A stretch of 64,000 nt of DNA from Escherichia coli (GTDB lineage Bacteria; Pseudomonadota; Gammaproteobacteria; Enterobacterales; Enterobacteriaceae): NCBI RefSeq assembly GCF_041248615.1, contig NZ_CP158426.1; one strand, given 5' to 3'. The number at the start of each line of letters is the position of its first letter. Within the stretch, counting starts at the first letter, position 1. Below the pieces are notes generated by a model, which saw nothing but the letters and a program-made list of their open reading frames with translations, made no database searches and had not been told where the DNA came from. Shown here piece by piece: positions 10,508-54,810 of the stretch. Both the position numbers and the translations under genes were made by a program.

Positions 10508-12753
<2,246 letters not shown>

Positions 12754-18137: not shown

Positions 18138-18962
18138 TTAAAGCAGTAGCGGTAGGGTCGCGCTGGCTGTTTTCTGGCTCACCTCGCTGTACTGGTCATC
18201 CAGCGCAATCAGCGATGTGGTGAGTAGCTCTACCAACAGCATCACTCCCACTTTGGCAGTCAGCGCGCCGGCACTCAAGGGTCCTTCCGGTTTGGCCGCG
18301 ACCAGTTGAATATCACTCAGCGAAGCTAACGGACTGCGCGGTGTATTACTCAGCGCCAGTACACGCACACCTTGCTTACGCGCTAGTTTTACGACATGCA
18401 GCAGATCGCGCGTGGATCCAGAACTGGAAATCGCCACCACGAACGTGTTTTTACTAAGTGTTGTGGCGTTCATGGCAGCACGATGCATATCGCTGAACAA
18501 TTGTGCGGGTTTCCCCAGACGCAGGAGTTTATAATGTAAATACTCCCCCAGAATGGCACTGGCTGCTACGCCATAAATCTGCACTGACTGAGCCTGATGC
18601 AGTGCAAGCGCGGCTGCTTCCAGCAAGGTTCTGTCGAGTAATTTTGCTGTGTCCTGTATTGCTTGCACGGATTCATTGACCACATTGTCAATCTCATCAC
18701 CGCCGTGCTCTACAAACTGTACTTGTCGGAGATCGAGTGCCAGCGCCATTTTGAATTCGTTATAGCCCTTACACCCAAGCGTTCGGCACAGACGTGTGAC
18801 GCTAGCCTCGCTGGTGCCGCTTTCACGCGCAAGTTCGGTAATCGTCAGGTAGACAACTTTTGCCGGATCGCTAAGTACAAACTCTCCCAGCTTCTGTTGT
18901 GTTCGGCTATATCCATCAACGCTCTGGCGCAATCTCAGCAGCAGGTTTTCATTTTCTGACAT
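18138..18962 (-). CDS. RpiR/MurR-family transcriptional regulator (HTH plus SIS domain)
   Basis: 274 aa; N-terminal HTH (ITELARESGTSEASVTRLCRTLG) and C-terminal SIS-like region; divergent from the PTS EIICB gene. Confidence 0.8.
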   Translation of the reverse strand: MSENENLLLRLRQSVDGYSRTQQKLGEFVLSDPAKVVYLTITELARESGTSEASVTRLCRTLGCKGYNEFKMALALDLRQVQFVEHGGDEIDNVVNESVQAIQDTAKLLDRTLLEAAALALHQAQSVQIYGVAASAILGEYLHYKLLRLGKPAQLFSDMHRAAMNATTLSKNTFVVAISSSGSTRDLLHVVKLARKQGVRVLALSNTPRSPLASLSDIQLVAAKPEGPLSAGALTAKVGVMLLVELLTTSLIALDDQYSEVSQKTASATLPLLL

Positions 18963-19127
18963 GTAAAATCCTTAATGCGTTTATCTGTTGATAGTGTGAC
19001 GGAAAGGAGGGGATTGATGCCAGACATTTTAAAAAAGTATGATCGACTTCTTAGATTTTGATGGTGATTTTTATTTATAAGAATAATTATAGTAAAAATT
19101 TTCATCAAAAATCGAGGAGATGATAAA

Positions 19128-20684
19128 ATGATGCAAATGTTTAGCGGCGCTTCATCGGGGGGATGGTTTGAAAAAGCGCAGCGGTTCGGAAAATCCTTCA
19201 TGCTGCCGATTGCGGTATTGCCCGCAGCAGGGCTGTTATTAGGGATTGGTGGCGCGTTGTCAAATCCAAACACGTTGACGGCTTATCCGTTTTTAGATGC
19301 CGACTGGTTGCAGGCAATATTCACAATCATGACCAGCGCAGGTTCTATTGTGTTTGCCAACCTGTCGGTACTCTTTGCAGTCGGCGTCGCCGTGGGGCTG
19401 GCGAAATCGGATAAAGGCACTGCCGGGCTTGCGTCATTGCTGGCGTTTCTGGTGATGAATGCCACCATCAACGCCTTATTAACGCTCAACGGAACGCTGG
19501 CGCACAAGAACCCCGCTTCAGTTGGCCAGGGGATGACGCTTGGTATTCAGACACTGGAAACTGGTGTGTTTGGTGGGGTGGTGATTGGTCTCGTCACCTG
19601 CACTTTACATAGCCGTTTCAATAAAGTCTCACTACCTCAGTTTCTCGGTTTTTTTAGTGGTTCTCGTTTTGTACCCATTATCAGCTCCCTTGCCGCGATA
19701 GTAGTGGGTGCGGTTATGACGGTGGTGTGGCCGCATTTCCAGAAACTCATTTTTGGACTGGGCGACCTGGTGGATGCGACGGGCTATCTGGGGACGCTGT
19801 TGTACGGCTTCATCCTGCGTATGCTCGGTCCACTGGGTTTACACCATATCTTTTATTTGCCGTTCTGGACGACGGCGCTGGGCGGCAGTGAAATCGTCAA
19901 CGGCCAGTTGGTTGAAGGTACGCAGCGGATTTTCTTTGCCCAACTTGCCGATCCGAATACGCAGCAGTTCTACGCGGGTACCGCTCGCTTTATGTCCGGG
20001 CGCTTTATCACCATGATGTTTGGCCTGCTTGGCGCATGTCTGGCAATGTACCATACTGCAAAGCCGGAGAATAGAAAGGTTGTCGCCGGACTACTTTTGT
20101 CGGCAGCCCTGACCTCTTTCCTGACGGGAATCACTGAGCCTGTTGAGTTCTCCTTCCTGTTTGTCGCGCCCGTATTATACGTAATTCACGCCTTCTTCGA
20201 TGGTCTGGCGTTTATGGTCGCCCATATTTTACATATCACTATTGGGCAAACCTTTTCGGGCGGGCTTATCGATTTCCTTCTCTTCGGCGTGTTGCAGGGG
20301 GAAGCTAAAACAAACTGGATGTATGTCCCCATAGTGGGAATACCGTGGTTCTTCCTTTACTACTTTACTTTCCGCTATTTGATTAACCGCTTTGGCTGGC
20401 TGACGCCGGGGCGTGAGAACGTAACCCAGGTTGAATCCGGCCAGCCTCAGAGTGAACGCGCAGCGGCAGTCATTGCCGGGCTGGGAGGCAAAGAGAATCT
20501 GGAAGAGGTGGACTGTTGCGCCACGCGCCTGCGCGTGACGGTTAAAGAGAGCAGTAAGGTAGATGAAGCTGCGCTGAAAGTGGCCGGAGCGCGTGGCGTG
20601 ATTATTCGCGGCAACGGCGTTCAGGTGATTTATGGCCCTCATGTCACCATCATTAAAAACGAAGTCGAAGAGATTTTATCGTAA
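19128..20684 (+). CDS. PTS glucose-family EIICB component
   Basis: 518 aa; N-terminal EIIC membrane domain and C-terminal EIIB with CATRLR phosphorylation-site motif. Confidence 0.85.
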
Positions 20685-21373
20685 TGAAAACTGTACTGGA
20701 TTCCCTGAAAGGTAAATTAATCGTCTCCTGTCAGGCTCTGGAAAATGAGCCTCTACATAGTCCGTTTATTATGTCACGTATGGCGCTGGCGGCAGCACAA
20801 GGTGGTGCTGCAGGTATCCGTGCCAACAGCGTGGCGGATATTAGTGCTATCAAAGAGATTGTCTCCCTTCCGATGATAGGGATTATCAAACGCGATTACC
20901 CTGGCAGTGAGGTGTTTATCACGGCCACTCTCCGGGAAGTGGATGAGCTGATGACCGTTGAGCCGGAAATTATTGCCCTGGATGCTACTGCGCGCCCGCG
21001 CCCTGGTGGTCAGACGCTGGAAGAACTGGTCACGCAGATCCGCGCTCGCTACCCGTCCATACTTCTGATGGCAGATATAGCAACAGTAGAAGAGGCAGTG
21101 ACAGCTGAACGTCTGGGTTTTGACTGTGTGGGCACTACGCTCTACGGCTATACCGCAGAAACTGCCAGGCATGTGCTGGCGGAAAATGACTGTGGATTCT
21201 TACGTGAGGTCCTGAAAGCGGTCAGCGTTCCGGTCGTGGCGGAAGGGAATGTCGACACCCCGGAGTGCGCCGCACGTTGCCTGACATTAGGCGCTCATAC
21301 CGTGGTGGTTGGGGGGGCAATCACTCGTCCGCAGCAGATAACGACACGCTTTATTGCAGCGATCGCCTCGTAA
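20684..21373 (+). CDS. N-acetylmannosamine-6-phosphate 2-epimerase (NanE family)
   Basis: 229 aa; NanE-like TIM-barrel motifs ([15 protein letters not shown]); start overlaps the EIICB stop (translational coupling). Confidence 0.8.
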
Positions 21374-21877: not shown

Positions 21878-22216
21878 ATGAAAAAATACTCTTCTCCCGT
21901 CCTTGCACTCATTCTTGTTAGCAACAGTATGGTATCCTCCGCTGCCACAAAAGAAATCTCAAAAACAGCTTATGTCTGTAATGGAAATAAGACAATGGAG
22001 GTGGTCTATATCAACACCACTGCTGGGAACTCATATGCAGTGATTAATCAGATGGATGAGATGATACCTATGCAGCTAATGAAAATGGCCTCCGGAGCCA
22101 ATTACGAAGCCATCAATAAAAGATACTCATATAAACTGTACACAAAAGGTAAAAAAGCCAATCTGGTGGAAGGGAATGATAATCCTGTCTTAAGCAACTG
22201 TTCATCGGCCGAATGA
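21878..22216 (+). CDS. MliC-family periplasmic protein (putative C-type lysozyme inhibitor)
   Basis: 112 aa with signal peptide; pattern Y-x-C ... SGA-x-Y ... TKG ... NC consistent with MliC (YdhA) fold motifs. Confidence 0.5.
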   Translation: MKKYSSPVLALILVSNSMVSSAATKEISKTAYVCNGNKTMEVVYINTTAGNSYAVINQMDEMIPMQLMKMASGANYEAINKRYSYKLYTKGKKANLVEGNDNPVLSNCSSAE

Positions 22217-22572
22217 CAGCCAGAGCCTGTCAGTAATTCTGTGTAAATGCCTTTTCTTTAAAGTGACCGTCAGGACGGTCACTGATTACCCATTCTGAAT
22301 TCAGTGCAGAATTAAAACATGTGTGCAAAATAATTTAATTCAGACAGCTTTTTATTTCACTATGGCTATCCCAGAACAACCAGTACAAATAATAAAAGAC
22401 ATATCACAGCAACACTCCACACTGACAGCGCAAAAATAAATGCCGCCTTTGTTATCTTCATATACAAGCAACCTGTCCTGATAATCACCAACTCATGTTT
22501 TATTCTTAACCATTCGTCACAAATACAACAAAAAATAACAGCAGCAGCACCGATATCACAATATAAGATACA

Positions 22573-23028
22573 TTATTCAACACCTGAATCCCCCGCCGCT
22601 TCTCTCCCCTTTATAAAACGCCCCTTCCGGAATCCAGACCGCTGCAGTGCACGACGAAGATGACCGTATACCGTCTTGTCATTCTGCCCCGTCTCTTCTG
22701 TAATCTCCGCAATACTTAAACCTCTGTAATACCGGTTCAGTACCGCTCTGCGCTCTTCCAGCGTCAACACACCTCCGGCCGCTCTCAGATTCAGCATCGA
22801 CTTATTCAGAATACAGCAGGCCTCTCCGGTAAAAAGAATACGAACAATATCTGTATACTCATCATCACAGAATACAAAATAATATCTGAATGACCTGCCT
22901 GACTGCACCCTTCTTCTGTCTGATATGGCATCTTCTATATATCTGATTCGACTGCTTACGGTTCCAAATATCTCTCGCAGGGCTTTTTCAAAATAAATAT
23001 CTCTCGTCGCCAGGATTATATCCAGCAT
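22573..23028 (-). CDS. Putative HTH transcriptional regulator (LuxR / sigma-70 region 4-like C-terminus)
   Basis: 151 aa; C-terminal LTLEERRAVLNRYYRGLSIAEITEETGQNDKTVYGHLRRA helix-turn-helix; directly downstream of and co-oriented with the trimeric autotransporter gene. Confidence 0.45.
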   Translation of the reverse strand: MLDIILATRDIYFEKALREIFGTVSSRIRYIEDAISDRRRVQSGRSFRYYFVFCDDEYTDIVRILFTGEACCILNKSMLNLRAAGGVLTLEERRAVLNRYYRGLSIAEITEETGQNDKTVYGHLRRALQRSGFRKGRFIKGREAAGDSGVE

Positions 23029-23089
23029 CTCTGTACCTCATTATATCCCGGGGGACTCCCCCCGGGACAGATATCTAAATCCTGACCTG

Positions 23090-24328
23090 TCAGAACTCAA
23101 AATTCACACCAGCATTCCACGATGCGGATGACCCACCTGCAGCAACTGCAACTTTTCCTGCCACATTCTCTGTGAAACGGTAGCCCACGCCCACCGCAAT
23201 GGCCTGCTCATCACGGTAACCACCAACGGCTGCTGTCGCGTTAAATTTTCCAACACTGTATGGCTGGAAAAGACCTGCCAGTGCCGCGCTCTGGGCTGCA
23301 CTCTCCCTTAACTCCTTCCGGTTCTCTTTAATCTGCTCCTGCATATTATTCATTCTCTCTGTCGCCATCTTCTGCCAGGCTTCCGTCAAATCCAGACGAT
23401 GACTGTTATTCCTTATCGCTGCTGTATTTGAGGCTATTGCTGCATCCGTCTGCGCCCTGTTCTTCACAAGCACATCGCTGAGATGTTCTGCCTGGCTTTT
23501 CGCTTCTTTACGGGCATCCCGTACACTTTTATCTGTATAAGCCCGGGAAACCTGAACTGTTTCATCCGCTTTTTCTTTTATTTCATCCTGAAGAGCAAGA
23601 GAAGATGCATCCGTATACGCCACCGCTGCCGATGTGCCTGCAATAATATCCCTGCTGAGTTCAGCATGAACTGTTGAAAGACGTTTATCTGTCTCGTCAA
23701 TTCTTTCATTCGTCTGCAACAAAAAGACCTGTGCATCATCAAATCGTTCATTCAGTTGCCCTACCGTCGCTGCATCTGTGTTATTGATACCATCAGACAC
23801 ATTTATAATCCGGCGGGTTTCCGGTGCTCCTTTGACACTCTCTCCATATCCCTCAGGCCCGGCACCAACAGATACCACGTTATTTTCTCCCGACACCTGT
23901 GAGCCATGGCCCAGAGCTACAGAACTGGTAGAATCCTGCACAGATGAAAACGCACCAATTGCCGAGCTCTGACGAGAAGAAATAAGTGACGCTTCTTTTC
24001 CTGCAACAGTCCCCCATTCAGAGTCAGCAATAAGTGCATCATGCCCCAGACTCACACTTCCCGGAGAGTTCACAACACCAGAATTATTCCCCAAAAGCAC
24101 AGTCCTGTTTGAGTCTAATAAAAAAGAATCATCACCAATCAACCATACATTTCTTACTTTATCAATCGAACGGCCAGCTACTGATTCTCCAACAAGAAAG
24201 CTATTATCTTCGCCAGGTTGAATCGGTCCGATTAAAATATCCTGAGCCTGAGCCTGAGCCGAGAGCAGCAGGGCCACACTCACTGCCAGCGCGCTTTTCT
24301 TTAAAAAAGCATCACGTCTTTTAAGCAT
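23090..24328 (-). CDS. Trimeric autotransporter adhesin (YadA-like anchor)
   Basis: Start at MLKRRDAFLKK with AGGAGA ribosome-binding site; signal peptide; Ser/Gly-rich head repeats; long coiled-coil stalk; C-terminal YadA-type membrane anchor ending ...AGVNFEF. Confidence 0.8.
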   Translation of the reverse strand: MLKRRDAFLKKSALAVSVALLLSAQAQAQDILIGPIQPGEDNSFLVGESVAGRSIDKVRNVWLIGDDSFLLDSNRTVLLGNNSGVVNSPGSVSLGHDALIADSEWGTVAGKEASLISSRQSSAIGAFSSVQDSTSSVALGHGSQVSGENNVVSVGAGPEGYGESVKGAPETRRIINVSDGINNTDAATVGQLNERFDDAQVFLLQTNERIDETDKRLSTVHAELSRDIIAGTSAAVAYTDASSLALQDEIKEKADETVQVSRAYTDKSVRDARKEAKSQAEHLSDVLVKNRAQTDAAIASNTAAIRNNSHRLDLTEAWQKMATERMNNMQEQIKENRKELRESAAQSAALAGLFQPYSVGKFNATAAVGGYRDEQAIAVGVGYRFTENVAGKVAVAAGGSSASWNAGVNFEF

Positions 24329-25079
24329 TCTGTTATTCTCCTGTATTATTACTTCACCAGCCAGAACGGTAGTGCGGAGCAAAAATACAGTGATAAGAAT
24401 CCTCTTTTATTAATTTAATAATGCCAGGAATATTATTGTGTATAATATGCGCCCTCAATTTAAGCAGCAGAAAACGACTGGCATTAAAATCATTAAATTA
24501 TAAACATATACAACTTTGTAAAGGTGGTTATAATAAACCTGATTACTTTAACGTCTGTATACCTGCACTGCTGATATCACAAAACAATAAAAATCCTGGT
24601 TAATATCTCTGATGATTGAATGAGAAATTCACGATGTCTGGTGAGAATTCTGTTCAAAACGAGGAATGCAGACGTACACGTGGCACGCACCACGTGATCC
24701 GTAGAAAAGCCTCTTGTTACGAATTTCGTAAACCGCACGTCTGTCTGGTCGTGCGGATTTTTTATCCGTCAACTTCACATGAAACCCGCCAGAGCACTGT
24801 TTCCGGATTCAGACATCAGGCATATTATTATCCACGATGTCGTGAACAAGATCACACTTTTGCAATTCCTTTATTGATCGAAAGCAGTTAATCACGGAAA
24901 TTAATTACCGGAGTGAAAGCATTTGCTATATAAACATTCCCAGAAGACATCTTCATGTTGAATATTATTCCCTTATTGACTAGCCCCTCTGACAGAATTT
25001 CAGAGGGGGTTTTTTATCAGTTTCACCATCCAACCCTGTACGCCAGAATGGTTTCACTGTCACTCAGTTCTGCTATTGC

Positions 25080-25350
25080 CTTTTTCATCTCCCTTTACCT
25101 TACGTTCTGCCAGAGTCTGAGCCATTTGAACAGGAGGTTATCATTGATATCGTGTTCCCGGGCAATACGGGCAACAGAGGCTCCTGGTTGCAAAACCAGT
25201 TTAACCATTTGAAGTTTAACTCATTTGAAAATGATCTGCGGGGTTCTGCGGATAATGTTTTTGCTCCATAACAGGCGTCCACCAGTTTGAAAAGGTGGGC
25301 ACCTACGTTACCAATACTGGCTTAATGGCTACATACGGCGGTCGGTTCTT
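25080..25350 (-). mobile_element. IS66-family element remnant (left terminal repeat plus 5' fragment of orfA)
   Basis: 25111-25200 is homologous to the orfA 5' region of the complete IS66-family element (48941-49075); 25290-25345 resembles its left terminal repeat (GGCTACATACGGCGGTC...). Confidence 0.55.
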
Positions 25351-25470: not shown

Positions 25471-26424
25471 TTACAATAGCTCTCTGGCTGCCGCCACAAT
25501 ATCTTGCGCGGTTAACCCGTACTCTCTCTGTAAAAAGTCCTGAGTTCCAACCTGGCCATACCGCTCTTTAACCCCCACCCGACGCATGGGCACAGGACAA
25601 GTTTCTACAAGCACTTCAGCAACCGCTGAACCTAATCCATTATGAATACTATGGTTTTCACATGTTACGATCCGTCCTGTTTTTTCGGCATAATTTTTAA
25701 TTAACATCCGATCAACGGGTTTGAGCGTAAACATATCAATCACCGCTACACTTACCCCAGCCAGCTCAAGTTGACGTGCGGCCTCCAGGGCTTCCACCAC
25801 CATAATGCCATTAGCAATTAAGGTGACATCCGTACCTTCACGTAATACCTGCCCTTTGCCAATTGTAAAGGTTGTACCTGGTGCGTAAATACTCGCTGCT
25901 TGCTTCCGAATGGTACGAATCCAATAAAATCCTTCCAGTGCAACGAGTTGACGCAAGATATCGCTGAACATTACGGCATCTGTCATCTCCATCACCACCG
26001 AATGCGCCAGCCCGCGCACAATTCCCATATCTTCAAATGACATATGTGTTCCGCCATTGTGGCAAGCAGCAACACCCGCATCAGAAGCTATAACTTTGAC
26101 GTTAGCGCCCTGGTAATCAAGCGACATAAAGAGTTGATCAAAACAGCGACGACTGGCAAATGCGGTAAAGGTATGCACGAATGGCTTGCGCCCGGTTAAG
26201 GCCAGCCCTGCAGCTGTGCCGATAACATTGGCTTCCATAATGCCGCAATTAATGACGTGATCTGGATAATCCTGCGCCACGCTGTCCATTGCCATGGAAC
26301 TCATTAAATCAGCCTCAAGAGCAATGACAGAACTGACGTTTTTACTCTGTTGCGCGATAAAATCTGCATAAACTTTGCGCATTTCAATGCTGTCTTTTTG
26401 TCCTGCCGGTGCGAGATTAATCAT
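25471..26424 (-). CDS. Transketolase, C-terminal subunit (split transketolase)
   Basis: 317 aa with transketolase pyrimidine-binding and C-terminal domain motifs; overlaps the N-terminal subunit gene by 8 bp. Confidence 0.85.
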   Translation of the reverse strand: MINLAPAGQKDSIEMRKVYADFIAQQSKNVSSVIALEADLMSSMAMDSVAQDYPDHVINCGIMEANVIGTAAGLALTGRKPFVHTFTAFASRRCFDQLFMSLDYQGANVKVIASDAGVAACHNGGTHMSFEDMGIVRGLAHSVVMEMTDAVMFSDILRQLVALEGFYWIRTIRKQAASIYAPGTTFTIGKGQVLREGTDVTLIANGIMVVEALEAARQLELAGVSVAVIDMFTLKPVDRMLIKNYAEKTGRIVTCENHSIHNGLGSAVAEVLVETCPVPMRRVGVKERYGQVGTQDFLQREYGLTAQDIVAAARELL

Positions 26425-27247
26425 GCATAGCCTCCAGTTGGCGAATTGTTTCGTTTAGCGTCCCCTTCATCTCTTCTGTGAGGCGTAAGTGATGAGAATT
26501 ACTGAGTTGCTCGAGACACGGCACCCCCTGCCCTTTAATGCTATCGAGAATGACCACTCTCGGTCTGGCCTCAGCTGGCAGGACAGGTTTAACTACATTC
26601 AACAAGCCCTCAATATCATCGCCCTTCACTGTCACGACATCAAAACCGAAAGCCCGGAATTTTCCTTCCAAATCAAATGGATTAATAATTTCATCCAGTT
26701 GACCATCAAGCTGCTGTTTGTTCCAGTCCACAAACACAGTGAGGTTATTCAAACGATGATGCGCGATAAACTGGAAAGCTTCCCAACATTGGCCTTCATT
26801 AAGTTCGCCATCGCCGACAATACAAAAAACCCGATTCTTGCGCCCCGCCAGTTTATGCGACAGCGCCATCCCTCCGGCAATGGATATCCCCTGCCCCAGC
26901 GATCCTGTGGTGCTATCAACACCACACGTTTTTAGCCGATCCGGATGACTTGGTAAGCGGGTTCCGTTCTGATTTAAGGTGCTTAATTCTTCCAGTGGAA
27001 AGTAGCCTTTCAGCGCCAGAGTACTGTAGAGAGCAGGTCCGGCATGTCCTTTGGACAGGATAAAATAGTCACGCTCAGGCCAGTCGGGAGCAGCAGGATC
27101 AATTTTCATTACAGCGCCATAAAGCACTGCCAGCGTTTCCACAACCGACATGCTGCCACCATAATGACCGAAGCCGAGATGAGTTAATGATTTAAGCGTC
27201 TGGATACGTATATCCCGTGCAAATTGAGTCAATTCTTTAACATTCAT
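26417..27247 (-). CDS. Transketolase, N-terminal subunit (thiamine-diphosphate binding)
   Basis: 276 aa with GHAGPALY and GDGE...G thiamine-diphosphate motifs. Confidence 0.85.
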   Translation of the reverse strand: MNVKELTQFARDIRIQTLKSLTHLGFGHYGGSMSVVETLAVLYGAVMKIDPAAPDWPERDYFILSKGHAGPALYSTLALKGYFPLEELSTLNQNGTRLPSHPDRLKTCGVDSTTGSLGQGISIAGGMALSHKLAGRKNRVFCIVGDGELNEGQCWEAFQFIAHHRLNNLTVFVDWNKQQLDGQLDEIINPFDLEGKFRAFGFDVVTVKGDDIEGLLNVVKPVLPAEARPRVVILDSIKGQGVPCLEQLSNSHHLRLTEEMKGTLNETIRQLEAMHD

Positions 27248-28638
27248 GATTTGGCTCCACTCTTCTTCTGCGCTTTGGCAGCGATTTTGTTACTGGCGAA
27301 AATGTTCCAGGCAACCAGCAGCACAAATAGCGCTACTACAAGTCCGGTGATGGCAAAAGGTGAGAGATAACGTGCCAGGTTTCCGAGGACGATGCCGACA
27401 GCACCAAAATCTGCATCGGAAAAGGTCGTATTAGCAAAGCCTATCGCCCCAAGAACCGGCAATAACAGTACTGGCAGGAAGGTAATCAATAAGCCATTCG
27501 CAAAAGCACCAATCATTGCGCCACGACGTCCCCCCGTAGCGTTACCAAATACGCCAGCAGCCGCCCCGGTAAAAAAGTGAGGAACGACACCCGGAAGAAT
27601 CAACACCAGTTTCATCTGTCCCAACAAAAATAGCCCTACCAGACCGCCAAAAAAGCTAAACAAGAAACCAACTAACACTGCGTTTGGCGCATACGGATAC
27701 ACAACCGGGCAATCGAGGGCCGGACGGGCATTCGGCACCAGCTTTTCTGAAAACCCGGTAAATGCCGGAACTATTTCAGCAAGGATTAAACGCACGCCTT
27801 GCAGAATAATAAATACACCAGCAGCGAAGGTGATGGCCATTATGATGGCGTAGACAAGGTAGTTTTGACCACCACTGAACTGGCTTTCAACGAACTCACG
27901 ACCAGCACTGATCGCCATGATCAGATAAATCACCATCATCGTAAGAGAAATAGAGATGGAACTGTCGCGCAGGAAGCTCAGATTTTTGGGCAAATTCATC
28001 TCTTCGGTGGAGCGGGAACCTTTACCGCACACGCTGCCAATCCAGCCAGAAAGTACATATCCCAGAGTGCCAAAGTGACCAAAAGCAATGTCATCATTCC
28101 CCGTAATACGCTTCATATAGCGTTGTGCTAATGCCGGGAAAAATGCCATCACAAGTCCCAGAATAAGAGAACCGGTAAAGACCAGTGATATACCTTCAAA
28201 ACCAGCCACTGTCAGAATCACACCAATCATGCAGGCCATGTAAAATGTGTGGTGTCCGGTCAGGAAGATATATTTAAGGCGGGTAAAGCGGGCAACAATA
28301 ATATTCGCCACCATACCAAATGCCATAATAAGGGCCGTCGATGCGCCATATTTTTCCAGCGCAATAGAAACAATAGCCTCATTATTCGGAATGATGCCCT
28401 GAATATTAAAGGCATGTTCAAACATACTCCCAAGAGGATTTAACGAACCAACCAAAACAGTGGCACCACCGCCCAGTACAATAAAGCCGAGAATAGTTTT
28501 AATTGTACCTTTAACAACATCTGAAAAAGATTTTTTCTGGGCAACCAGACCAATTAAGGCAATCAAGCCGACCAGTATCGCGGGCACTTTAAGTATATCA
28601 ACAACAAAATTCAGCGTTTCAAGGATAAACATATCCAC
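27244..28638 (-). CDS. PTS ascorbate-family EIIC (UlaA/SgaT-like)
   Basis: 464-aa polytopic membrane protein with UlaA-like organisation; overlaps the transketolase N-subunit start. Confidence 0.85.
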   Translation of the reverse strand: MDMFILETLNFVVDILKVPAILVGLIALIGLVAQKKSFSDVVKGTIKTILGFIVLGGGATVLVGSLNPLGSMFEHAFNIQGIIPNNEAIVSIALEKYGASTALIMAFGMVANIIVARFTRLKYIFLTGHHTFYMACMIGVILTVAGFEGISLVFTGSLILGLVMAFFPALAQRYMKRITGNDDIAFGHFGTLGYVLSGWIGSVCGKGSRSTEEMNLPKNLSFLRDSSISISLTMMVIYLIMAISAGREFVESQFSGGQNYLVYAIIMAITFAAGVFIILQGVRLILAEIVPAFTGFSEKLVPNARPALDCPVVYPYAPNAVLVGFLFSFFGGLVGLFLLGQMKLVLILPGVVPHFFTGAAAGVFGNATGGRRGAMIGAFANGLLITFLPVLLLPVLGAIGFANTTFSDADFGAVGIVLGNLARYLSPFAITGLVVALFVLLVAWNIFASNKIAAKAQKKSGAKS

Positions 28639-28654
28639 CTCGCTTCAATTAAGG

Positions 28655-28927
28655 TTATTGTTTTGCTAACCAGTTACGCAGTTGCGTTTCGAGTTCATTA
28701 ATATCAATGATGTTGTTGATAACCACCAACTGACTTTCCGGTACGCTGGCACTGGCAGCAATATCTTTGGCCATCACAAATAAATCGGCAGCCCCTGGCG
28801 TTGCTGATGAGAGATCGGAATGTTCCACTTCCGCCTCTATATCCATTTTTTTCAGAACTTTTTTAATATTCATTTCGACCATAAAACTACTACCAAGCCC
28901 TGAGCCACAAATAGCCATAATTTTCAT
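28655..28927 (-). CDS. PTS ascorbate-family EIIB
   Basis: MKIMAICGSGLGSS active-site cysteine motif; start chosen at the internal Met (the track ORF has a longer N-terminus); start uncertain. Confidence 0.7.
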   Translation of the reverse strand: MKIMAICGSGLGSSFMVEMNIKKVLKKMDIEAEVEHSDLSSATPGAADLFVMAKDIAASASVPESQLVVINNIIDINELETQLRNWLAKQ

Positions 28928-29005
28928 TATATTCACCATTTTAAGTTGAAGAAGTCCCATCACGCAACGGCGCAATGTTGTGAAAAGACTGAATTTATAA
29001 TGTAA

Positions 29006-29455
29006 TCAGAACCGTGAAATTATCTTTTTTATTTCCTCCACATTGCGAGCCTGATGCAATTCATGTAAATCTTTTTCGCTGGAGAATAACTCAGCCAGTG
29101 CAGATATCATTTCGATATGACTGTGTTTGTCTGGTGCGGCAAGTAAAATGATAACATCTACAGGATCAAATTCCTCTGTATGAAAACTGACACCTTCTTC
29201 AAGTTTTAATAATGATAAACCTAATCCTTTTGCCCCTTCTTCTGGTCGGGCATGCGGCATGGCCAGCCCGGGTGCCAGGACATAATAAGGCCCCAGTTTT
29301 TCATGTTGTGTCTTTATCGCACTGAGATAATCCGTCGTAATTATCTCTGCATCCAGTAACGGTCTGGCACAGATATCTAATGCCTGCTGCCAGGTTGCGG
29401 CATTCTTTCGTAATGCGATTGTTGAATCAGAAAGCCAGATATTAAGCACTCCCAC
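29006..29455 (-). CDS. PTS EIIA (mannitol/fructose-type fold; ascorbate-family partner)
   Basis: 149 aa with EIIA-2-like histidine region (LAMPHARPE). Confidence 0.75.
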   Translation of the reverse strand: MGVLNIWLSDSTIALRKNAATWQQALDICARPLLDAEIITTDYLSAIKTQHEKLGPYYVLAPGLAMPHARPEEGAKGLGLSLLKLEEGVSFHTEEFDPVDVIILLAAPDKHSHIEMISALAELFSSEKDLHELHQARNVEEIKKIISRF

Positions 29456-29706
29456 CCCCTAATTTCTTATTTATATGACCAGAATGTATTCAAGTAACGA
29501 CGGTATATCTGCGATCAATATCACAAAGATAGCGCTATCAGGAGGTATTGTTCGAATTTGTGATAGCGCTATCAAAATAGATTTCACTGATTAAATCCAG
29601 ACTTATGGCAGATATTAAGAGGTATACTCTGCTACTGGCAGTGCAGGAAGCCGTTGATGATAAGTAATAAAAGATCTCCATATGTAGTCGCTGAGCAGGA
29701 TTTTGT

Positions 29707-30726
29707 ATGGCAATAACCCGAAAACGTCGTAGTACAGGTAAAGTCACTATTGCTGATGTCGCGCAACTCGCGGGAGTTGGCACAATGACTGTATCCAGAG
29801 CGTTACGCACTCCCGAACAAGTTTCAGATAAATTGAGGGAGAAGATTGAAGCCGCAGTTAATGAATTAGGGTATATGCCCAACCTCACTGCAAGCGCACT
29901 GGCATCGGCATCTTCACACACGATCGCAATGGTCGTGCCAAACCTGGCTGAAGCGGGATGCACGGAAATGTTTGCCGGGCTGCAACATGTGCTACAACCA
30001 GCGGGGTATCAAATAATCCTGGCTGAGTCACGCCATCGTCTGGAACAAGAAGAAAAACTGCTGGAAACCCTGCTGGCTTCTAATATCGCTGCAGCAATTT
30101 TGCTTAGTGTTGAGCATAATAGTACCGTGCGTCACTTGCTCAAAAATGCCTCGATTCCTGTTATAGAAATCGGTGCCATTCGTACTGATCCGATAGATAT
30201 CAACATTGGTATTGATAATGTTGCAGCAATGTTCGAGCTGACGGATATGCTGGTACAACGTGGTTATCAGAATATCGGTTTGCTATGCGCTAACCAGGAA
30301 CAGTGGATCTTTCAGCAGCATTTACAGGGATGGTATAAAGCTATGTTACGCCATCATATGTCTCCCAACCGTGTTATTAACGCTGCTCTGCCACCTGTTT
30401 TTTCCACCGGAGCATCACAACTACCGGAATTTTTGCTCGCATGGCCGGAACTGGATGCCCTGGTATGTGTGTCAGATGAGTTAGCCTGCGGTGTTCTCTA
30501 TGAATGTCAACGAAGACGGATCAAAGTTCCAGACGAGCTCGCCGTAGTAGGATTTGGTGACAGTGACGTCAGCAAAGTTTGCCAACCATCATTAACAACA
30601 ATGGCCGTTCCTCACAGGAAAATTGGTCTGGAAGCAGGAAATGTTTTGCTGGAACGAATTAAAGAAGGTAACTGGAGCAATCAGATATTCATTGAGCCCT
30701 GTTTATGTTTACGTGAAAGCTGCTGA
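29707..30726 (+). CDS. LacI-family transcriptional regulator
   Basis: 339 aa; N-terminal HTH (TIADVAQLAGVGTMTVSRAL) plus periplasmic-binding-protein-like domain; divergent from the PTS/transketolase operon. Confidence 0.85.
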   Translation: MAITRKRRSTGKVTIADVAQLAGVGTMTVSRALRTPEQVSDKLREKIEAAVNELGYMPNLTASALASASSHTIAMVVPNLAEAGCTEMFAGLQHVLQPAGYQIILAESRHRLEQEEKLLETLLASNIAAAILLSVEHNSTVRHLLKNASIPVIEIGAIRTDPIDINIGIDNVAAMFELTDMLVQRGYQNIGLLCANQEQWIFQQHLQGWYKAMLRHHMSPNRVINAALPPVFSTGASQLPEFLLAWPELDALVCVSDELACGVLYECQRRRIKVPDELAVVGFGDSDVSKVCQPSLTTMAVPHRKIGLEAGNVLLERIKEGNWSNQIFIEPCLCLRESC

Positions 30727-31847
30727 AGCTGGGGGACTGGTATCTTTCAGCTCACTGATTTTGTTGCTGAACCTGATATATCCTTCGGTTTTCCACAACC
30801 AGGGGAAGGGTGTCATCATAAGGCGTGATGACACCCTGAATTCCCATCCTGTATCTGCAGAAAATTTTTCGTAAATAAATTAATTTAATAACTAAAAAGA
30901 AAATACAATAAGCAAAATATCAATTACAGAATGTTCGTTTGTTTAAAGAACCTGCTGGTCCTGCCATTAATATTACCTGCTGATTGCTTCACATCCGGAT
31001 TCCTCGCACTGCGCGCGGGTTATTGTTTCGTTTTCGGCCACGGGGTCGCCAGGGCTCTGTTTGCAGGCCATGATGGCCTGACCTGTACTGTTTCTCAGGC
31101 ACTGAGATGTCCGTTTACGCCATTTGTTCCCGGATATCCTTAACCTCTGACGTTTGTTCCCTGCCCCTCTGTCTGATAACGAATACGCTCACAACGCACA
31201 GTACTGAACAATACCGACAACAACATGTCTTACATGAAATTCGCTGTAACATCCACCGGAAAACATTTTCAGATATCGGATGAGGTACTACTTCCATTGA
31301 CAGCGCGAGGTAACAAAATTGATGGTAACTCTGACCATTAACCGTAAACCGCAGGGTATTTTCAGTAAATCACCGGCAACGCCGCTGCAGAATAAAACGG
31401 ACACAGCATACAAAATGAAGGCCGGTGACCAGATACCACAGTTGAACGATAAACAGAAACCTGCTGATAAAACACCGTGGCGACATGACAAAACGCCAGA
31501 GCAAAAACCGTAAGCGCATTATTCGTCTTGTGGAACTCTGGCCTGAGTCATTCAACCGGGAAAAAAACAAAACCACTTAAAGTGGGGATACCTGACGACC
31601 TGATACAGGATATCGCCATCCGAGAACTGGCGTTTGGCGCTGGTACATTACATGCAGCAGTGGCGTCTTATGTGCAGTCTCCGCGCTATTACCGTGCGTT
31701 AATAGCAGGTGGCGCCCGTTACAACCTGAACGGTCAGCCGTGCGGGGAAGTGACACCACAGGAACAGAAAGAGGCAGAGACCCGTTTAATGATGCTGAAT
31801 GACCGACGAAAAGACAGAAAACCTCGTTGACTGCACAACAGCGCTGT

Positions 31848-51312: not shown

Positions 51313-54300
51313 ATGAATAAGAATATACGAATTTTACAATTTCTGGTCAGTATACTTTATTCTGTGCAGTCTCATTTTTCTGGTGCGCAAACAATACAAC
51401 TGAATGGTAATGGTATACCTGAAAGTATAACCAGGAGTATTACAGGTGTTGATGGAAACGCGGCGCTTAATATCAGCGTGCCGTATAAAACAAGTTATAC
51501 TCAAAATATACTATCTGTTGAAAGCAGTATTAACATCAAAGGAGGAACAAGCAATACATCAATCGGTGGTGCAGGTGTCTACGGTGAAAACTTTACGCTA
51601 AATAATAATGGTAGTGTTTGGGGAGGAGATGGATATAATGGTGGAATTGCTGTTAGTGGCAACAAAATATCTATAAACAATTACAGAAATGTATATGGGG
51701 GTAATGGTCTTGGTGGCTCAGGAAGTAGCGGAGGTGCAGGGTTAAGCGGGGATGATATTATAGTTGATAATTACAGAAGTATATACGGAGGTGATGATGT
51801 AGGTGGGACAGGTGGTTCCGGTGTAACCGGTAGCAATATTACAGTGCATAATTCCGGAGGAATATTGGGCGGTAATGGCGTAAACGGTGGTGATGGTATT
51901 AATGGTAGTAATCTTTTCATTACTAACGACAACATGATATCTGGAGGATATGGAATAAAACAAGGGGGAGATGCTATTTCTGGAAATCAAATCACTTTGA
52001 ATAATAACGGTATTGTTCAGGGGGGATATGGCCCCGACGGTGGTTGCTCTGTTTATGGAGAAGATATCCATATTAATAATCATGGTAATCTTTCAGGATT
52101 ATATAATAGCCAAAAAGATGCTTATAATACATCAATAATTTTTTCTGGCGGGTATAATTCATTAGATATTTATTCAGATTCTGTGATTAATGGTGATATT
52201 AAACTAGCTAGTATACCTGTTAATGGTACAAATGAATTAATTATTAAAAACATCAATAACGCAACAGCAATTAATGGTGGGCTAATGATTGGGAATGGCT
52301 CATCTGTTTATCTGTCAGGCAAGAACTCCATTTTTAACGGAAATATAAGTATTGATGAAGACGCATCTATGAACCTGTCTGTAGGAAATGCTAATGTTCA
52401 CGCAAATACTATTACATTAAAAAGTGATTCATGGCTTAATATAGACACATCAATTAAGAACTGGACTCAGGACTATTACACATTATTGTCGTCAGACACA
52501 GGTATCTCGATCGCTGATAATAGTCACATTGTACAATACAATGTATTACTGACAGAAGGTGCTGAAAGTTATGTTTATACGTCTTTAAATGACGACGATA
52601 ACAAACTGATATCCATGCTGAGATGGAATAATACAAAAGGGATGGGATATGGAACCTTTAATATAGAAAAAGATGCCACTCTGAACATAGGCGTTTCTCT
52701 TTCCGATAATCTTTCACCTTTATTATATGATGGCTGGGACGGCAAAAGTCTGACAAAATCAGGTAATGGTACTCTTATACTTTCTGCAACAAACAATTAT
52801 ACAGGAAATACAGAGGTTAAATCTGGCGTATTAATTCTTGCTGCACCTGATGCTCTTGGTCGGACTGAGTATTTATATTTATCCCGTGGCGCAGAACTGG
52901 ATATGAATGGGTATCCTCAGACAATAAGCAAACTACTGACGGCTGCAGGCTCTGTGCTGAACATTCATGGCGGAAGTCTGATACTGAATAATGGAGGAGA
53001 ATCTGCAGGTACTATTGCAGGGGATGGTTCTCTGAACATAAATGGGGGAATGCTTGATATAACGGGTAATAATCGTAATTTTTCCGGTGTTTTTACCGTG
53101 AATAAGGGGGCTCATTTGGCTGTATCCACGGCTGATAATCTGGGGACAGCCTTTGTTGATAACTATGGCACATTAACTCTGAACAGTACATCAGCATGGC
53201 AGCTTACCAACAATATCAGTGGTTATGGTAATGTTCGCAAGACGGGAGCAGGTGCACTGAACATTAGCGATAACGCAAAATGGACCGGGATGACAGATAT
53301 TATTCAGGGGACAGTGATACTGGGGAACGCAGATTCACCGGTGATGCTCGGCAGTAACCAGGTCATTGTTGAAGAGCAGGGCAAACTCTCCGGGTTTGGG
53401 GGCGTTGCAGGAAATCTGAGCAATAGTGGTATAGTCGATCTCACTACATATATGCCGGGTAATATACTGACTGTCGGAGGGAATTACACTGGCAGAAATG
53501 GACTTATTCTCCTCCAGACAGAAACAGGTGGTGACAATTCGAAAACAGATCGTCTGGTGATTAAAGGTAATGCCAGTGGCCGTACCCGTGTCGCTGTTAC
53601 TCAGGCCGGTGGTACTGGTGCAGAGACACTTAATGGGATTGAAGTGATTCACGTCAGTGGCAATGCTGATAATGCTGAATTCATTCAGACGGAACGTATT
53701 ACAGCCGGAGCTTATGATTACATACTGAAACGTGGTCAGGGGATTAACAGCACTAACTGGTATCTGATTAGCAGAAAAGACATTCCTGTACCACAACCTG
53801 AAGCTGTACCGGAAAGCCATGATAATAATTTGCGTCCTGAGGCAGGTAGCTATGTTGCCAGTATTGCTGCTGCAAATAATCTGTTTGTAACGAATCTGTA
53901 TGAACGACAGGGACAGGAGTTGTATATCAGCCACATGACAGGAGAAGAAAATGAAGCAGGTATCTGGATGTATAATAAAGGAAAACATAATCGCTGGCGT
54001 GACAACAGTAGTCAGCTGAGAACCCGGGGGAATAGCTACGTTGTGTTAATAGGGGGAGATATAGCTCAGTGGAGCCTGAATGGTACCGATCGCTGGCATA
54101 CAGGTATGATGGCTGGCTATGGTCATAATAATAACAGTACGAATGCCCTGAGCACCGGATACCATTCGGAAGGAAGAATGAATGGATACACAGCGGGTCT
54201 TTATGCAACATGGTATGCCAATGATGAAACACACAATGGTTCTTATCTTGATAGCTGGCTGCAATACAGCTGGTTTGATAATCATATAAATGGAGAACGG

Positions 54301-54810
54301 CTGCCTGCTGAGTCATGGAAGTCAAAAGGGTTTACGGTATCTCTGGAAGCAGGATATTCATGGAAGGCTGGAGAGTTTACCGACAATTACAAGGGAAGTC
54401 ATGAATGGTATGTTCAGCCGCAGCTTCAGGTTGTCCGGATGAATGTAAAATCAGACAAATATCATGAAAGTAACGGAACCAGTATTGAAAATACCGGTAA
54501 CGGAAATATTCTCACCCGCCTGGGAGCAAGAACATGGCTTACCAGCAAAAACGGTAAAAATACGCGGTATGCGGTTCCGTTCAGACCATTTGTGGAGGCA
54601 CACTGGTTGCACAATAGTCGTGTTTTCGGCACCAGTATGAATGGTGTAAGTATATACCAGGATGGTGCGCGTGATATCGGAGAAATAAATGGTGGTGTTG
54701 TGGGAATGATAACACCAGAAGTAGCATTCCGGGCTGATGCAGGCATTCAACTTGGAGAACATGGATACCATAATACATCTGCCATGTTGAGTGTGGAATA
54801 TCGTTTCTGA
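51313..54810 (+). CDS. Classical (type Va) autotransporter with glycine-rich beta-helical passenger domain
   Basis: 1165 aa; signal peptide; long passenger with repeated GG.G..G motifs; C-terminal beta-barrel translocator ending ...SVEYRF; low GC. Confidence 0.85.
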   Translation: MNKNIRILQFLVSILYSVQSHFSGAQTIQLNGNGIPESITRSITGVDGNAALNISVPYKTSYTQNILSVESSINIKGGTSNTSIGGAGVYGENFTLNNNGSVWGGDGYNGGIAVSGNKISINNYRNVYGGNGLGGSGSSGGAGLSGDDIIVDNYRSIYGGDDVGGTGGSGVTGSNITVHNSGGILGGNGVNGGDGINGSNLFITNDNMISGGYGIKQGGDAISGNQITLNNNGIVQGGYGPDGGCSVYGEDIHINNHGNLSGLYNSQKDAYNTSIIFSGGYNSLDIYSDSVINGDIKLASIPVNGTNELIIKNINNATAINGGLMIGNGSSVYLSGKNSIFNGNISIDEDASMNLSVGNANVHANTITLKSDSWLNIDTSIKNWTQDYYTLLSSDTGISIADNSHIVQYNVLLTEGAESYVYTSLNDDDNKLISMLRWNNTKGMGYGTFNIEKDATLNIGVSLSDNLSPLLYDGWDGKSLTKSGNGTLILSATNNYTGNTEVKSGVLILAAPDALGRTEYLYLSRGAELDMNGYPQTISKLLTAAGSVLNIHGGSLILNNGGESAGTIAGDGSLNINGGMLDITGNNRNFSGVFTVNKGAHLAVSTADNLGTAFVDNYGTLTLNSTSAWQLTNNISGYGNVRKTGAGALNISDNAKWTGMTDIIQGTVILGNADSPVMLGSNQVIVEEQGKLSGFGGVAGNLSNSGIVDLTTYMPGNILTVGGNYTGRNGLILLQTETGGDNSKTDRLVIKGNASGRTRVAVTQAGGTGAETLNGIEVIHVSGNADNAEFIQTERITAGAYDYILKRGQGINSTNWYLISRKDIPVPQPEAVPESHDNNLRPEAGSYVASIAAANNLFVTNLYERQGQELYISHMTGEENEAGIWMYNKGKHNRWRDNSSQLRTRGNSYVVLIGGDIAQWSLNGTDRWHTGMMAGYGHNNNSTNALSTGYHSEGRMNGYTAGLYATWYANDETHNGSYLDSWLQYSWFDNHINGERLPAESWKSKGFTVSLEAGYSWKAGEFTDNYKGSHEWYVQPQLQVVRMNVKSDKYHESNGTSIENTGNGNILTRLGARTWLTSKNGKNTRYAVPFRPFVEAHWLHNSRVFGTSMNGVSIYQDGARDIGEINGGVVGMITPEVAFRADAGIQLGEHGYHNTSAMLSVEYRF

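Follow-up and report, generated by a model that had tools for sequence, protein, structure and literature searches.

A family of small helix-turn-helix genes behind Eib/Cla-type trimeric adhesin genes of Escherichia coli, and a pliC gene beside one of them in a selC island

In Escherichia coli, a gene for a small helix-turn-helix (HTH) protein was found directly behind a gene for a YadA-type trimeric autotransporter adhesin, next to a candidate lysozyme-inhibitor gene, which raised the question of whether these three genes belong together and what the small protein does there. The locus lies in a 64,000-nucleotide stretch of contig NZ_CP158426.1 (assembly GCF_041248615.1), referred to below as the window, and consists of a 412-aa adhesin gene (23090–24328, minus strand; WP_192459640.1), a 151-aa HTH protein gene (22573–23028, minus strand; WP_000884153.1) and pliC, which encodes a predicted periplasmic inhibitor of c-type lysozyme of 112 aa (21878–22216, plus strand; WP_000760915.1). 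Annotation was taken from positions 64001–128000 of RefSeq record NZ_LT599825.1 (E. coli NRZ14408), to which the 4 kb around the locus were 100% identical, and the three open reading frames (ORFs) matched that annotation at 100%. On balance, and at slightly better than even confidence, we favor the reading that the locus is an Eib/Cla-type cassette of an adhesin plus a small regulator, carried elsewhere as prophage cargo and here in a selC island beside an independent pliC. The adhesin and PliC add members to kinds of protein already known, and both had been annotated before; an adhesin with a neighboring LuxR-type regulator is likewise a known theme; the HTH family linked to the adhesin is uncharacterized.

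The small helix-turn-helix protein and its family

The original prediction described the 151-aa protein as carrying an HTH like that of LuxR or σ70 region 4, which was borne out by a Pfam match to Sigma70_r4_2 over residues 87–130 (E 4e-7). Searches with the single sequence against 5.8 billion plus 1.84 billion proteins returned only E. coli copies at least 88% identical and generic HTH matches. A reading of the protein as an orphan was dropped after the gene order at eibG had revealed its family. In strain JNEC-KY208, eibG follows prophage tail-fibre genes and is itself followed on the same strand by a gene for a 157-aa hypothetical protein, which aligned with the 151-aa protein over the full length at 23% identity (E 6e-5), both proteins having the N-terminal motif ILATR-x-x-Y-x-E and the HTH in common. 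The ORF located after claB also matched the 151-aa protein in a pairwise comparison (E 2e-6). A profile search started from the 151-/157-aa pair collected 57 proteins, mostly “hypothetical proteins” of 155–190 aa; the members with a named source were all from E. coli, except for one partial Salmonella record. Aligned by hhalign to a 21-member profile of this family, the 151-aa protein matched over 128 columns with 94% probability (E 1.4e-7), and its start codon and N-terminal motif were in register with those of the other members. Thus, the protein is homologous to the family at the profile level, and its gene lies shortly after that of a YadA-anchor adhesin. No model in Pfam or NCBIfam covers the family.

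The family alignment also made the fold predictable: AlphaFold returned a model with pLDDT 77 with the alignment, and an unusable one (pLDDT 37) without it. The predicted structure consists of a beta-alpha-beta-alpha-beta-alpha-beta domain (approximately residues 1–79) followed by a three-helix HTH (residues 90–130), and its best fold matches were FixJ, RcsB, NarL, EvgA and GerE, GerE being also the top PDB match for the family profile. Neighbors of the model in AFDB were uncharacterized proteins from E. coli, Salmonella and Enterobacter. The order of an alpha/beta domain and then a LuxR-type HTH is that of the NarL/FixJ regulators and GerE. However, compared to the NarL/FixJ receivers, the N-terminal domain is cut to ~80 residues and four strands, and T-R stands in place of the acidic pair after beta-1, so that the protein has a C-terminal helical HTH of the GerE/sigma-region-4 type without a complete receiver domain. 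Of the receiver residues, only the Asp closing beta-3 is kept, and it is invariant in the family. Pfam gave no Response_reg or GerE match in the protein or the family, and no cognate kinase gene was annotated by RefSeq near the HTH gene. The truncation of the receiver and the replacement of the acidic pair suggest an activity independent of phosphorylation. Taken together, the sequence comparisons and the predicted fold identify the 151-aa protein as a divergent member of an uncharacterized enterobacterial family that combines a truncated receiver-like domain with a LuxR/GerE-type HTH.

Pairing with Eib/Cla-type adhesin genes

As originally described, the HTH gene follows the adhesin gene on the same strand, the two being separated by 61 nt. 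The view that the HTH gene is an unusual partner for an adhesin did not hold, because genes of the same family also follow eibG, claB and canonical Eib genes. At eibG, at canonical Eib genes and at other small adhesin genes, the family gene began 60–90 nt past the adhesin gene, in most cases after a hairpin. The arrangement was also present after a 349-aa adhesin gene in a prophage, after a 367-aa adhesin gene on a plasmid-like contig, and after a small YadA-anchor adhesin gene on a contig where it lies next to hya. At the claB locus, the family gene, a 100%-probability family match, carries the annotation “LuxR family transcriptional regulator”, and a family gene was also located downstream at a degraded claA locus. 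The claB and claA loci differ by a conserved extra ORF of 68 aa between the adhesin and HTH-family genes (L036, 5831–6037; L037, 5568–5774), which widens the gap at claB to ~400 nt and is absent both here and at eibG. When IMG/VR viral contigs were searched with the family alignment, 47 family loci could be assessed, and in 22 of them an adhesin anchor, in some cases that of an EibD-like adhesin, ended 82–90 nt upstream on the same strand. Strain TUM1886 carries the same adhesin–HTH cassette as the window in a prophage tail-fibre slot like that of eibG, suggesting that the cassette is phage cargo, located here in the selC island. The recurrence of the family behind Eib and Cla adhesins strengthens the idea of a dedicated regulator.

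The adhesin was correctly predicted to be a YadA-type trimeric autotransporter. Its C-terminal residues 354–412 (23093–23269, minus strand) matched YadA_anchor PF03895 (E 2.6e-16) and the solved YadA anchor PDB 2LME (E 1.3e-17), residues 173–194 matched YadA_stalk (E 2.2e-5), and the YadA_head match was weak (E 0.23). The layout comprises a signal peptide (approximately residues 1–29; MLKRRDAFLKKSALAVSVALLLSAQAQA, read off the translation), a beta-roll head with repeats, the neck RRIINVSDGINNTDAATVGQL at approximately residues 172–192, a coiled-coil stalk, and the anchor; an AGGAG Shine-Dalgarno sequence precedes the ATG at 24328. In strains that share these flanks, the adhesin alleles had 412, 421 or 548 aa, and one strain had a pseudogene; further alleles, of 480 and 513 aa, were found elsewhere. 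Alignment of the alleles resolved four zones: the signal peptide and the neck were conserved, the head between them varied, and the C-terminal 190 residues were invariant. A stalk insert held 1–3 copies of the 33-aa repeat VRDELKAEGDSLRGEIGGVYRDARAHTDSQVTA. The 412-aa allele equals the 548-aa allele minus a 136-aa stalk segment that consists mostly of three 33-aa repeat copies. This segment is flanked by direct repeats encoding ELSRDIIAGTSAAV.YTD, indicating that the 412-aa gene is an in-frame short-stalk allele, and the lone remaining copy of the ELSRDIIAGTSAAVAYTD repeat (23607–23662, minus strand) marks the junction left by the missing segment. Judged from these alignments, the gene is a length-variable, Eib/Cla-related mosaic that encodes an intact type Vc autotransporter, in which the head varies, the stalk differs in length between alleles and the anchor is invariant.

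The relationship to the characterized adhesins appeared to be a distant one. The passenger of EibG was 38% identical to the adhesin of the window, and ClaB was 40% identical, with the anchor motif AAQSAALAGLFQPYSVGKFNATAA being near-identical between EibG/EibD and this adhesin. The EibD structure 2XQH was matched weakly and only in the head (E 2.9e-6), compared to 7e-88 and 6e-76 for two canonical prophage Eib proteins, and close passenger similarity to EibA–H was lacking. The signal peptide also differs, starting with MLKRRDAF... instead of the MSKKF... of Eib, as does the location, in a selC island here and in a prophage for eibG. The region around D391 of EibG aligned ambiguously with RAQTDAAIAS of this adhesin. 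Eib-like adhesins were recently divided into Eib, Cla and “Yal” groups in a preprint of December 2025 (bioRxiv 10.64898/2025.12.25.695649), and ClaA and ClaB are related to Eib and lie outside the canonical Eib clusters. An identity of this adhesin with ClaA or ClaB was rejected: the published claA/claB primers were absent from all 35 loci searched, including the present one, and the start (MLKRR) and end (GVNFEF) of this gene differ from the primers in DNA. The distance from EibG, ClaB and EibD and the mismatch to the Cla primers together place the adhesin, as far as its sequence tells, in a separate and uncharacterized lineage of the Eib/Cla group.

We also considered eYadA of the avian pathogenic strain XM (PMC12955052), which proved to be a different adhesin, encoded at the cueR–ybbJ locus with a lipoprotein gene downstream. 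In strain XM (NZ_CP025328.1) that downstream gene encodes a 140-aa lipoprotein (locus positions 5375–5797). Deletion of eyadA increased motility, and complementation was only partial (PMC12955052); a polar effect of the deletion on downstream genes may be worth checking.

In a census of 5426 complete E. coli genomes, 326 places matched the 3′ half of the adhesin gene and 290 matched the HTH gene, with 183 genomes in either case. The cassette is thus rare, being carried by 3.4% of the complete genomes, but a single genome may have it at as many as 8 places, and the HTH gene was full-length and at least 99% identical across its 290 places. At least one cassette copy in the multi-copy genome NZ_CP128970.1 (3004634–3015217) lies in a lambdoid prophage after tail-fibre genes, and copies in multi-copy genomes may carry different head alleles. 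For 40 evenly spaced carrier genomes, the raw counts by source were 20 for chickens, turkeys or poultry products and 8 for humans.

Regulation of the pair and competing explanations

To address how the HTH gene might be expressed, we considered the region between the two genes, which contains two stable hairpins (23044–23102, minus strand), one overlapping the adhesin stop codon (23074–23102) and the other GC-rich (23044–23069). The double hairpin had a predicted energy of −36 kcal/mol (z −4.27) and lacked a U-tract. A scan for σ70-like promoters found none in the gap and none on the same strand upstream of the adhesin gene. The lack of a promoter in the gap and of a U-tract in the hairpin makes read-through plausible, and read-through at a reduced level would be the most economical reading. 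The HTH gene, whose ATG is preceded at 7 nt by a GAGG Shine-Dalgarno sequence, would then lack a promoter of its own and depend, for a low level of expression, on transcription running through the intergenic hairpin, so that the amount of HTH protein would follow adhesin transcription. The protein would bind DNA without phosphorylation, and may feed back on the AT-rich adhesin promoter or tune other surface programs, such as motility or capsule.

Two small putative hydrophobic ORFs of 17 aa (22506–22559) and 31 aa (MKITKAAFIFALSVWSVAVICLLLFVLVVLG, 22366–22461) lie downstream of the HTH gene on the same strand (22366–22559, minus) and travel inside the conserved cassette. In one frameshift variant of the HTH protein, the reading frame continues into these ORFs.

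The region upstream of the adhesin gene (24329–24763, minus strand) is AT-rich, with 35.6% GC in the 400 nt before the gene, and holds the two elements that had been pointed out there, an inverted repeat and a terminator-like hairpin. Both are present, and neither appears to serve adhesin control. The repeat CACGTGG-N6-CCACGTG (24677–24696) belongs to a run of CGTG with a period of 7 nt and lies next to an 84-bp segment that other strains have and this one lacks. We rejected it as an operator because chance alone would give about three perfect inverted repeats of 7 nt within 40 nt in this 1.1 kb (1142 × 40 × 4^−7) and because it borders an indel. The T-run of the hairpin (24727–24763) is in the plus strand, which is antisense to the adhesin gene, and the hairpin thus faces against the direction of that gene; it may end the neighboring transcription unit rather than control the adhesin.

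From the pairing and the intergenic region, we tentatively propose that the small HTH family could be the missing dedicated regulator of Eib/Cla adhesins, made by hairpin read-through, setting the adhesin on or off and coupling it to motility or capsule. Static and shaken cultures are known to differ in EibG expression. Expression of Eib and Cla adhesins responds to growth conditions, and the accessible literature nowhere names a regulator, nor did we find in it a description of the association between the HTH family and adhesins. If the proposal is right, the HTH family could explain the difference in EibG expression between static and agitated cultures. Eib/Cla adhesins confer chain-like adherence and autoaggregation, and Eib also immunoglobulin binding, in Shiga-toxin-producing and other E. 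coli, and a conserved HTH gene directly behind them is a specific and easily tested regulator candidate. A definition of the family would also improve the annotation of many E. coli prophages and islands, in which most members are now called “hypothetical protein”.

Functional precedents exist in regulators of other adhesins. AutA and AutR (= HyxA and HyxR) bind the upaB promoter and also affect capsule and acid resistance, the genes of the upaB cluster being separate transcription units (PMC4844996). Like the 151-aa protein, they are small LuxR/GerE-type HTH proteins adjoining a non-fimbrial adhesin gene. TosE and TosF, which according to the title of a study cited in PMC4844996 suppress motility, are, as far as that citing paper presents them, LuxR-type regulators encoded beside adhesin genes, at the end of the tos adhesin operon. 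All four are functional analogs only. Homology of the 151-aa protein to HyxR/HyxA was rejected at an hhalign probability below 1%, and PsrA/PsrB and RgdR were rejected as members of the same family, being of the AraC type and the DUF4222 type, respectively.

Several observations weigh against a cassette with a dedicated regulator. An upstream adhesin was missing from 25 of the 47 viral family loci, as well as from the members adjoining kps, hpa and PapB genes, so that the association with adhesins is not an exclusive one. The hairpin in the corresponding position at eibG and at one related prophage locus has the T-run of a canonical terminator, which speaks against simple co-transcription there. 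Insertions of IS elements split off or remove the HTH gene in some copies and leave the adhesin gene unharmed; in some genomes, IS421-type elements were inserted in a hairpin of the type present in the window, with the junction at 23051–23062. The HTH gene had three allele differences, all of them non-synonymous, and the 151-aa protein shares only ~23% identity with the other members.

The adhesin-free loci and the canonical terminators support a different explanation, in which the HTH protein is a general regulator of mobile elements with its own transcription unit and distant targets, and its adjacency to adhesins results only from a shared prophage cargo slot and co-inheritance. The loci without adhesins were located upstream of kpsF (group 2 capsule region 1), after hpaC, and near PapB-like/Hha genes and PerC-like genes. 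One prophage member (L061, 3001–3543) has tail-fibre genes on one side and, on the other, a type III effector-like gene, whose product we take to be NleA-like. A tblastn search for degraded adhesin genes upstream of the hpaC- and kpsF-adjacent members found none. Distant targets are also known for other island-borne regulators of E. coli (PMC10877973). In contrast, the gap and the position of the hairpin were kept across diverse adhesins and across prophage, plasmid-like and island contexts, the 61-nt gap has no promoter-like site, and the adhesin and HTH genes co-occur tightly within the lineage, which leaves the explanation by a general regulator rather doubtful.

A second alternative holds that the HTH ORF of this lineage is a decaying remnant without function. 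The exclusively non-synonymous allele differences, the tolerance of IS insertions in or next to the HTH gene, the existence of truncated and frameshifted variants, and the position of the 151-aa protein as the most divergent of the family are all consistent with decay. However, the ORF remained full-length and nearly invariant at all 290 places in the 183 genomes, it has kept its Shine-Dalgarno sequence as well as the start codon and N-terminal motif of the family, and its HTH still matches Pfam and folds confidently with the family alignment; decay therefore appears improbable to us. Finally, it is highly improbable that the protein is a sigma factor or a fragment engaging RNA polymerase, as its RefSeq name implies: its best Pfam and NCBIfam matches were indeed σ70 region 4 and extracytoplasmic function (ECF) sigma factors and many of its AFDB/PDB fold matches were region 4 domains, but region 2 was not detected, the NCBIfam sigma models scored 16–21 bits against cutoffs of 43–222, the 151 aa compare to 162–194 positions in ECF models that were matched in their C-terminal region only, the full-length fold matches were response regulators of the FixJ, RcsB and NarL types, GerE was the best solved match of the family profile, and the member linked to claB is annotated as LuxR family.

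The pliC gene and the surrounding island

The assignment of the third gene to the MliC-like lysozyme inhibitors was confirmed by an MliC domain (PF09864, E 4.9e-12) in the 112-aa protein and by the NCBIfam equivalog NF010363, which scored 155.7 bits against a cutoff of 127. The mature protein was identical to PDB 3OE3, which we take to be the periplasmic inhibitor PliC of Salmonella Typhimurium, at 64 of 89 positions (72%). Cys34 and Cys108 aligned with the cysteines of 3OE3, so the conserved Cys pair on which the original prediction had staked this assignment is present. The Sec-type signal peptide MKKYSSPVLALILVSNSMVSSA contains no Cys and hence no lipobox, pointing to a soluble protein of the PliC type and not to a lipoprotein of the MliC type. 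The conserved Cys pair and the non-lipobox signal peptide are both common to this protein and Salmonella PliC, and by these sequence features the 112-aa protein is a PliC orthologue of the MliC/PliC family.

The original prediction placed the inhibitor gene beside the pair, which is correct for its position; its association with the pair is confined to this island. pliC is convergent to the HTH gene, and a terminator-like hairpin, recognized by reading the sequence and not called by a consensus scan, lies between the two (22256–22283). In the other contexts of the adhesin–HTH pair, homology ended at ~22223, past the pliC stop codon (22214–22216), and pliC was absent, indicating that pliC is a neighbor and not a part of the cassette. 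The census found pliC in 147 of the 5426 genomes, almost always as a single copy. A 2012 paper on lysozyme inhibitors of avian pathogenic E. coli had noted pliC homologues in no more than two E. coli genomes, and speculated that some avian strains carry pliC as an extra c-type lysozyme inhibitor (PMC3458809). PliC would be exported to the periplasm to block c-type lysozyme, which would fit the poultry bias of the carriers. A rare pliC beside a cassette whose carriers are largely from poultry fits the suggestion made for avian strains in 2012 (PMC3458809).

The locus lies within a selC genomic island of ~50 kb, which extends from a tyrosine recombinase gene and tRNA-Sec (selC, 57491–57581) to the setC/yicL side and contains many IS elements, toxin–antitoxin genes and typical island backbone genes. 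A transposase remnant annotated by RefSeq (25107–25282, minus strand) separates the cassette from an upstream transketolase operon. Sugar-utilization modules lie on both sides of the cassette (25471–30050, minus; 30308–31327, plus; and 18138–21373), one comprising an ascorbate-type phosphotransferase system (PTS), a split transketolase and a LacI-type regulator, and the other a PTS IIC component, ManNAc-6-P epimerase and an RpiR regulator. The first of these modules is reduced to a 178-nt transketolase remnant in other genomes. Further genes of the island encode a TonB-dependent receptor and its DUF4198 partner (42525–45305, plus strand) and a classical autotransporter of 1165 aa (51313–54810, plus strand). 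Just beyond the island, beside yicS/nlpA, are type III secretion translocon and chaperone genes of the YopB/SseC and SycD/LcrH families (1–2331), which presumably resemble the eip cluster adjoining selC in enteroaggregative E. coli 042. An Rfam scan of the region of the three genes gave zero RNA family matches. In the window, the small RNA family isrC was matched twice, identically and at full length (150 bits each; 11575–11697, minus, and 41050–41172, plus), and both matches lie within copies of the IS3-family element ISEc31, to which the match apparently belongs.

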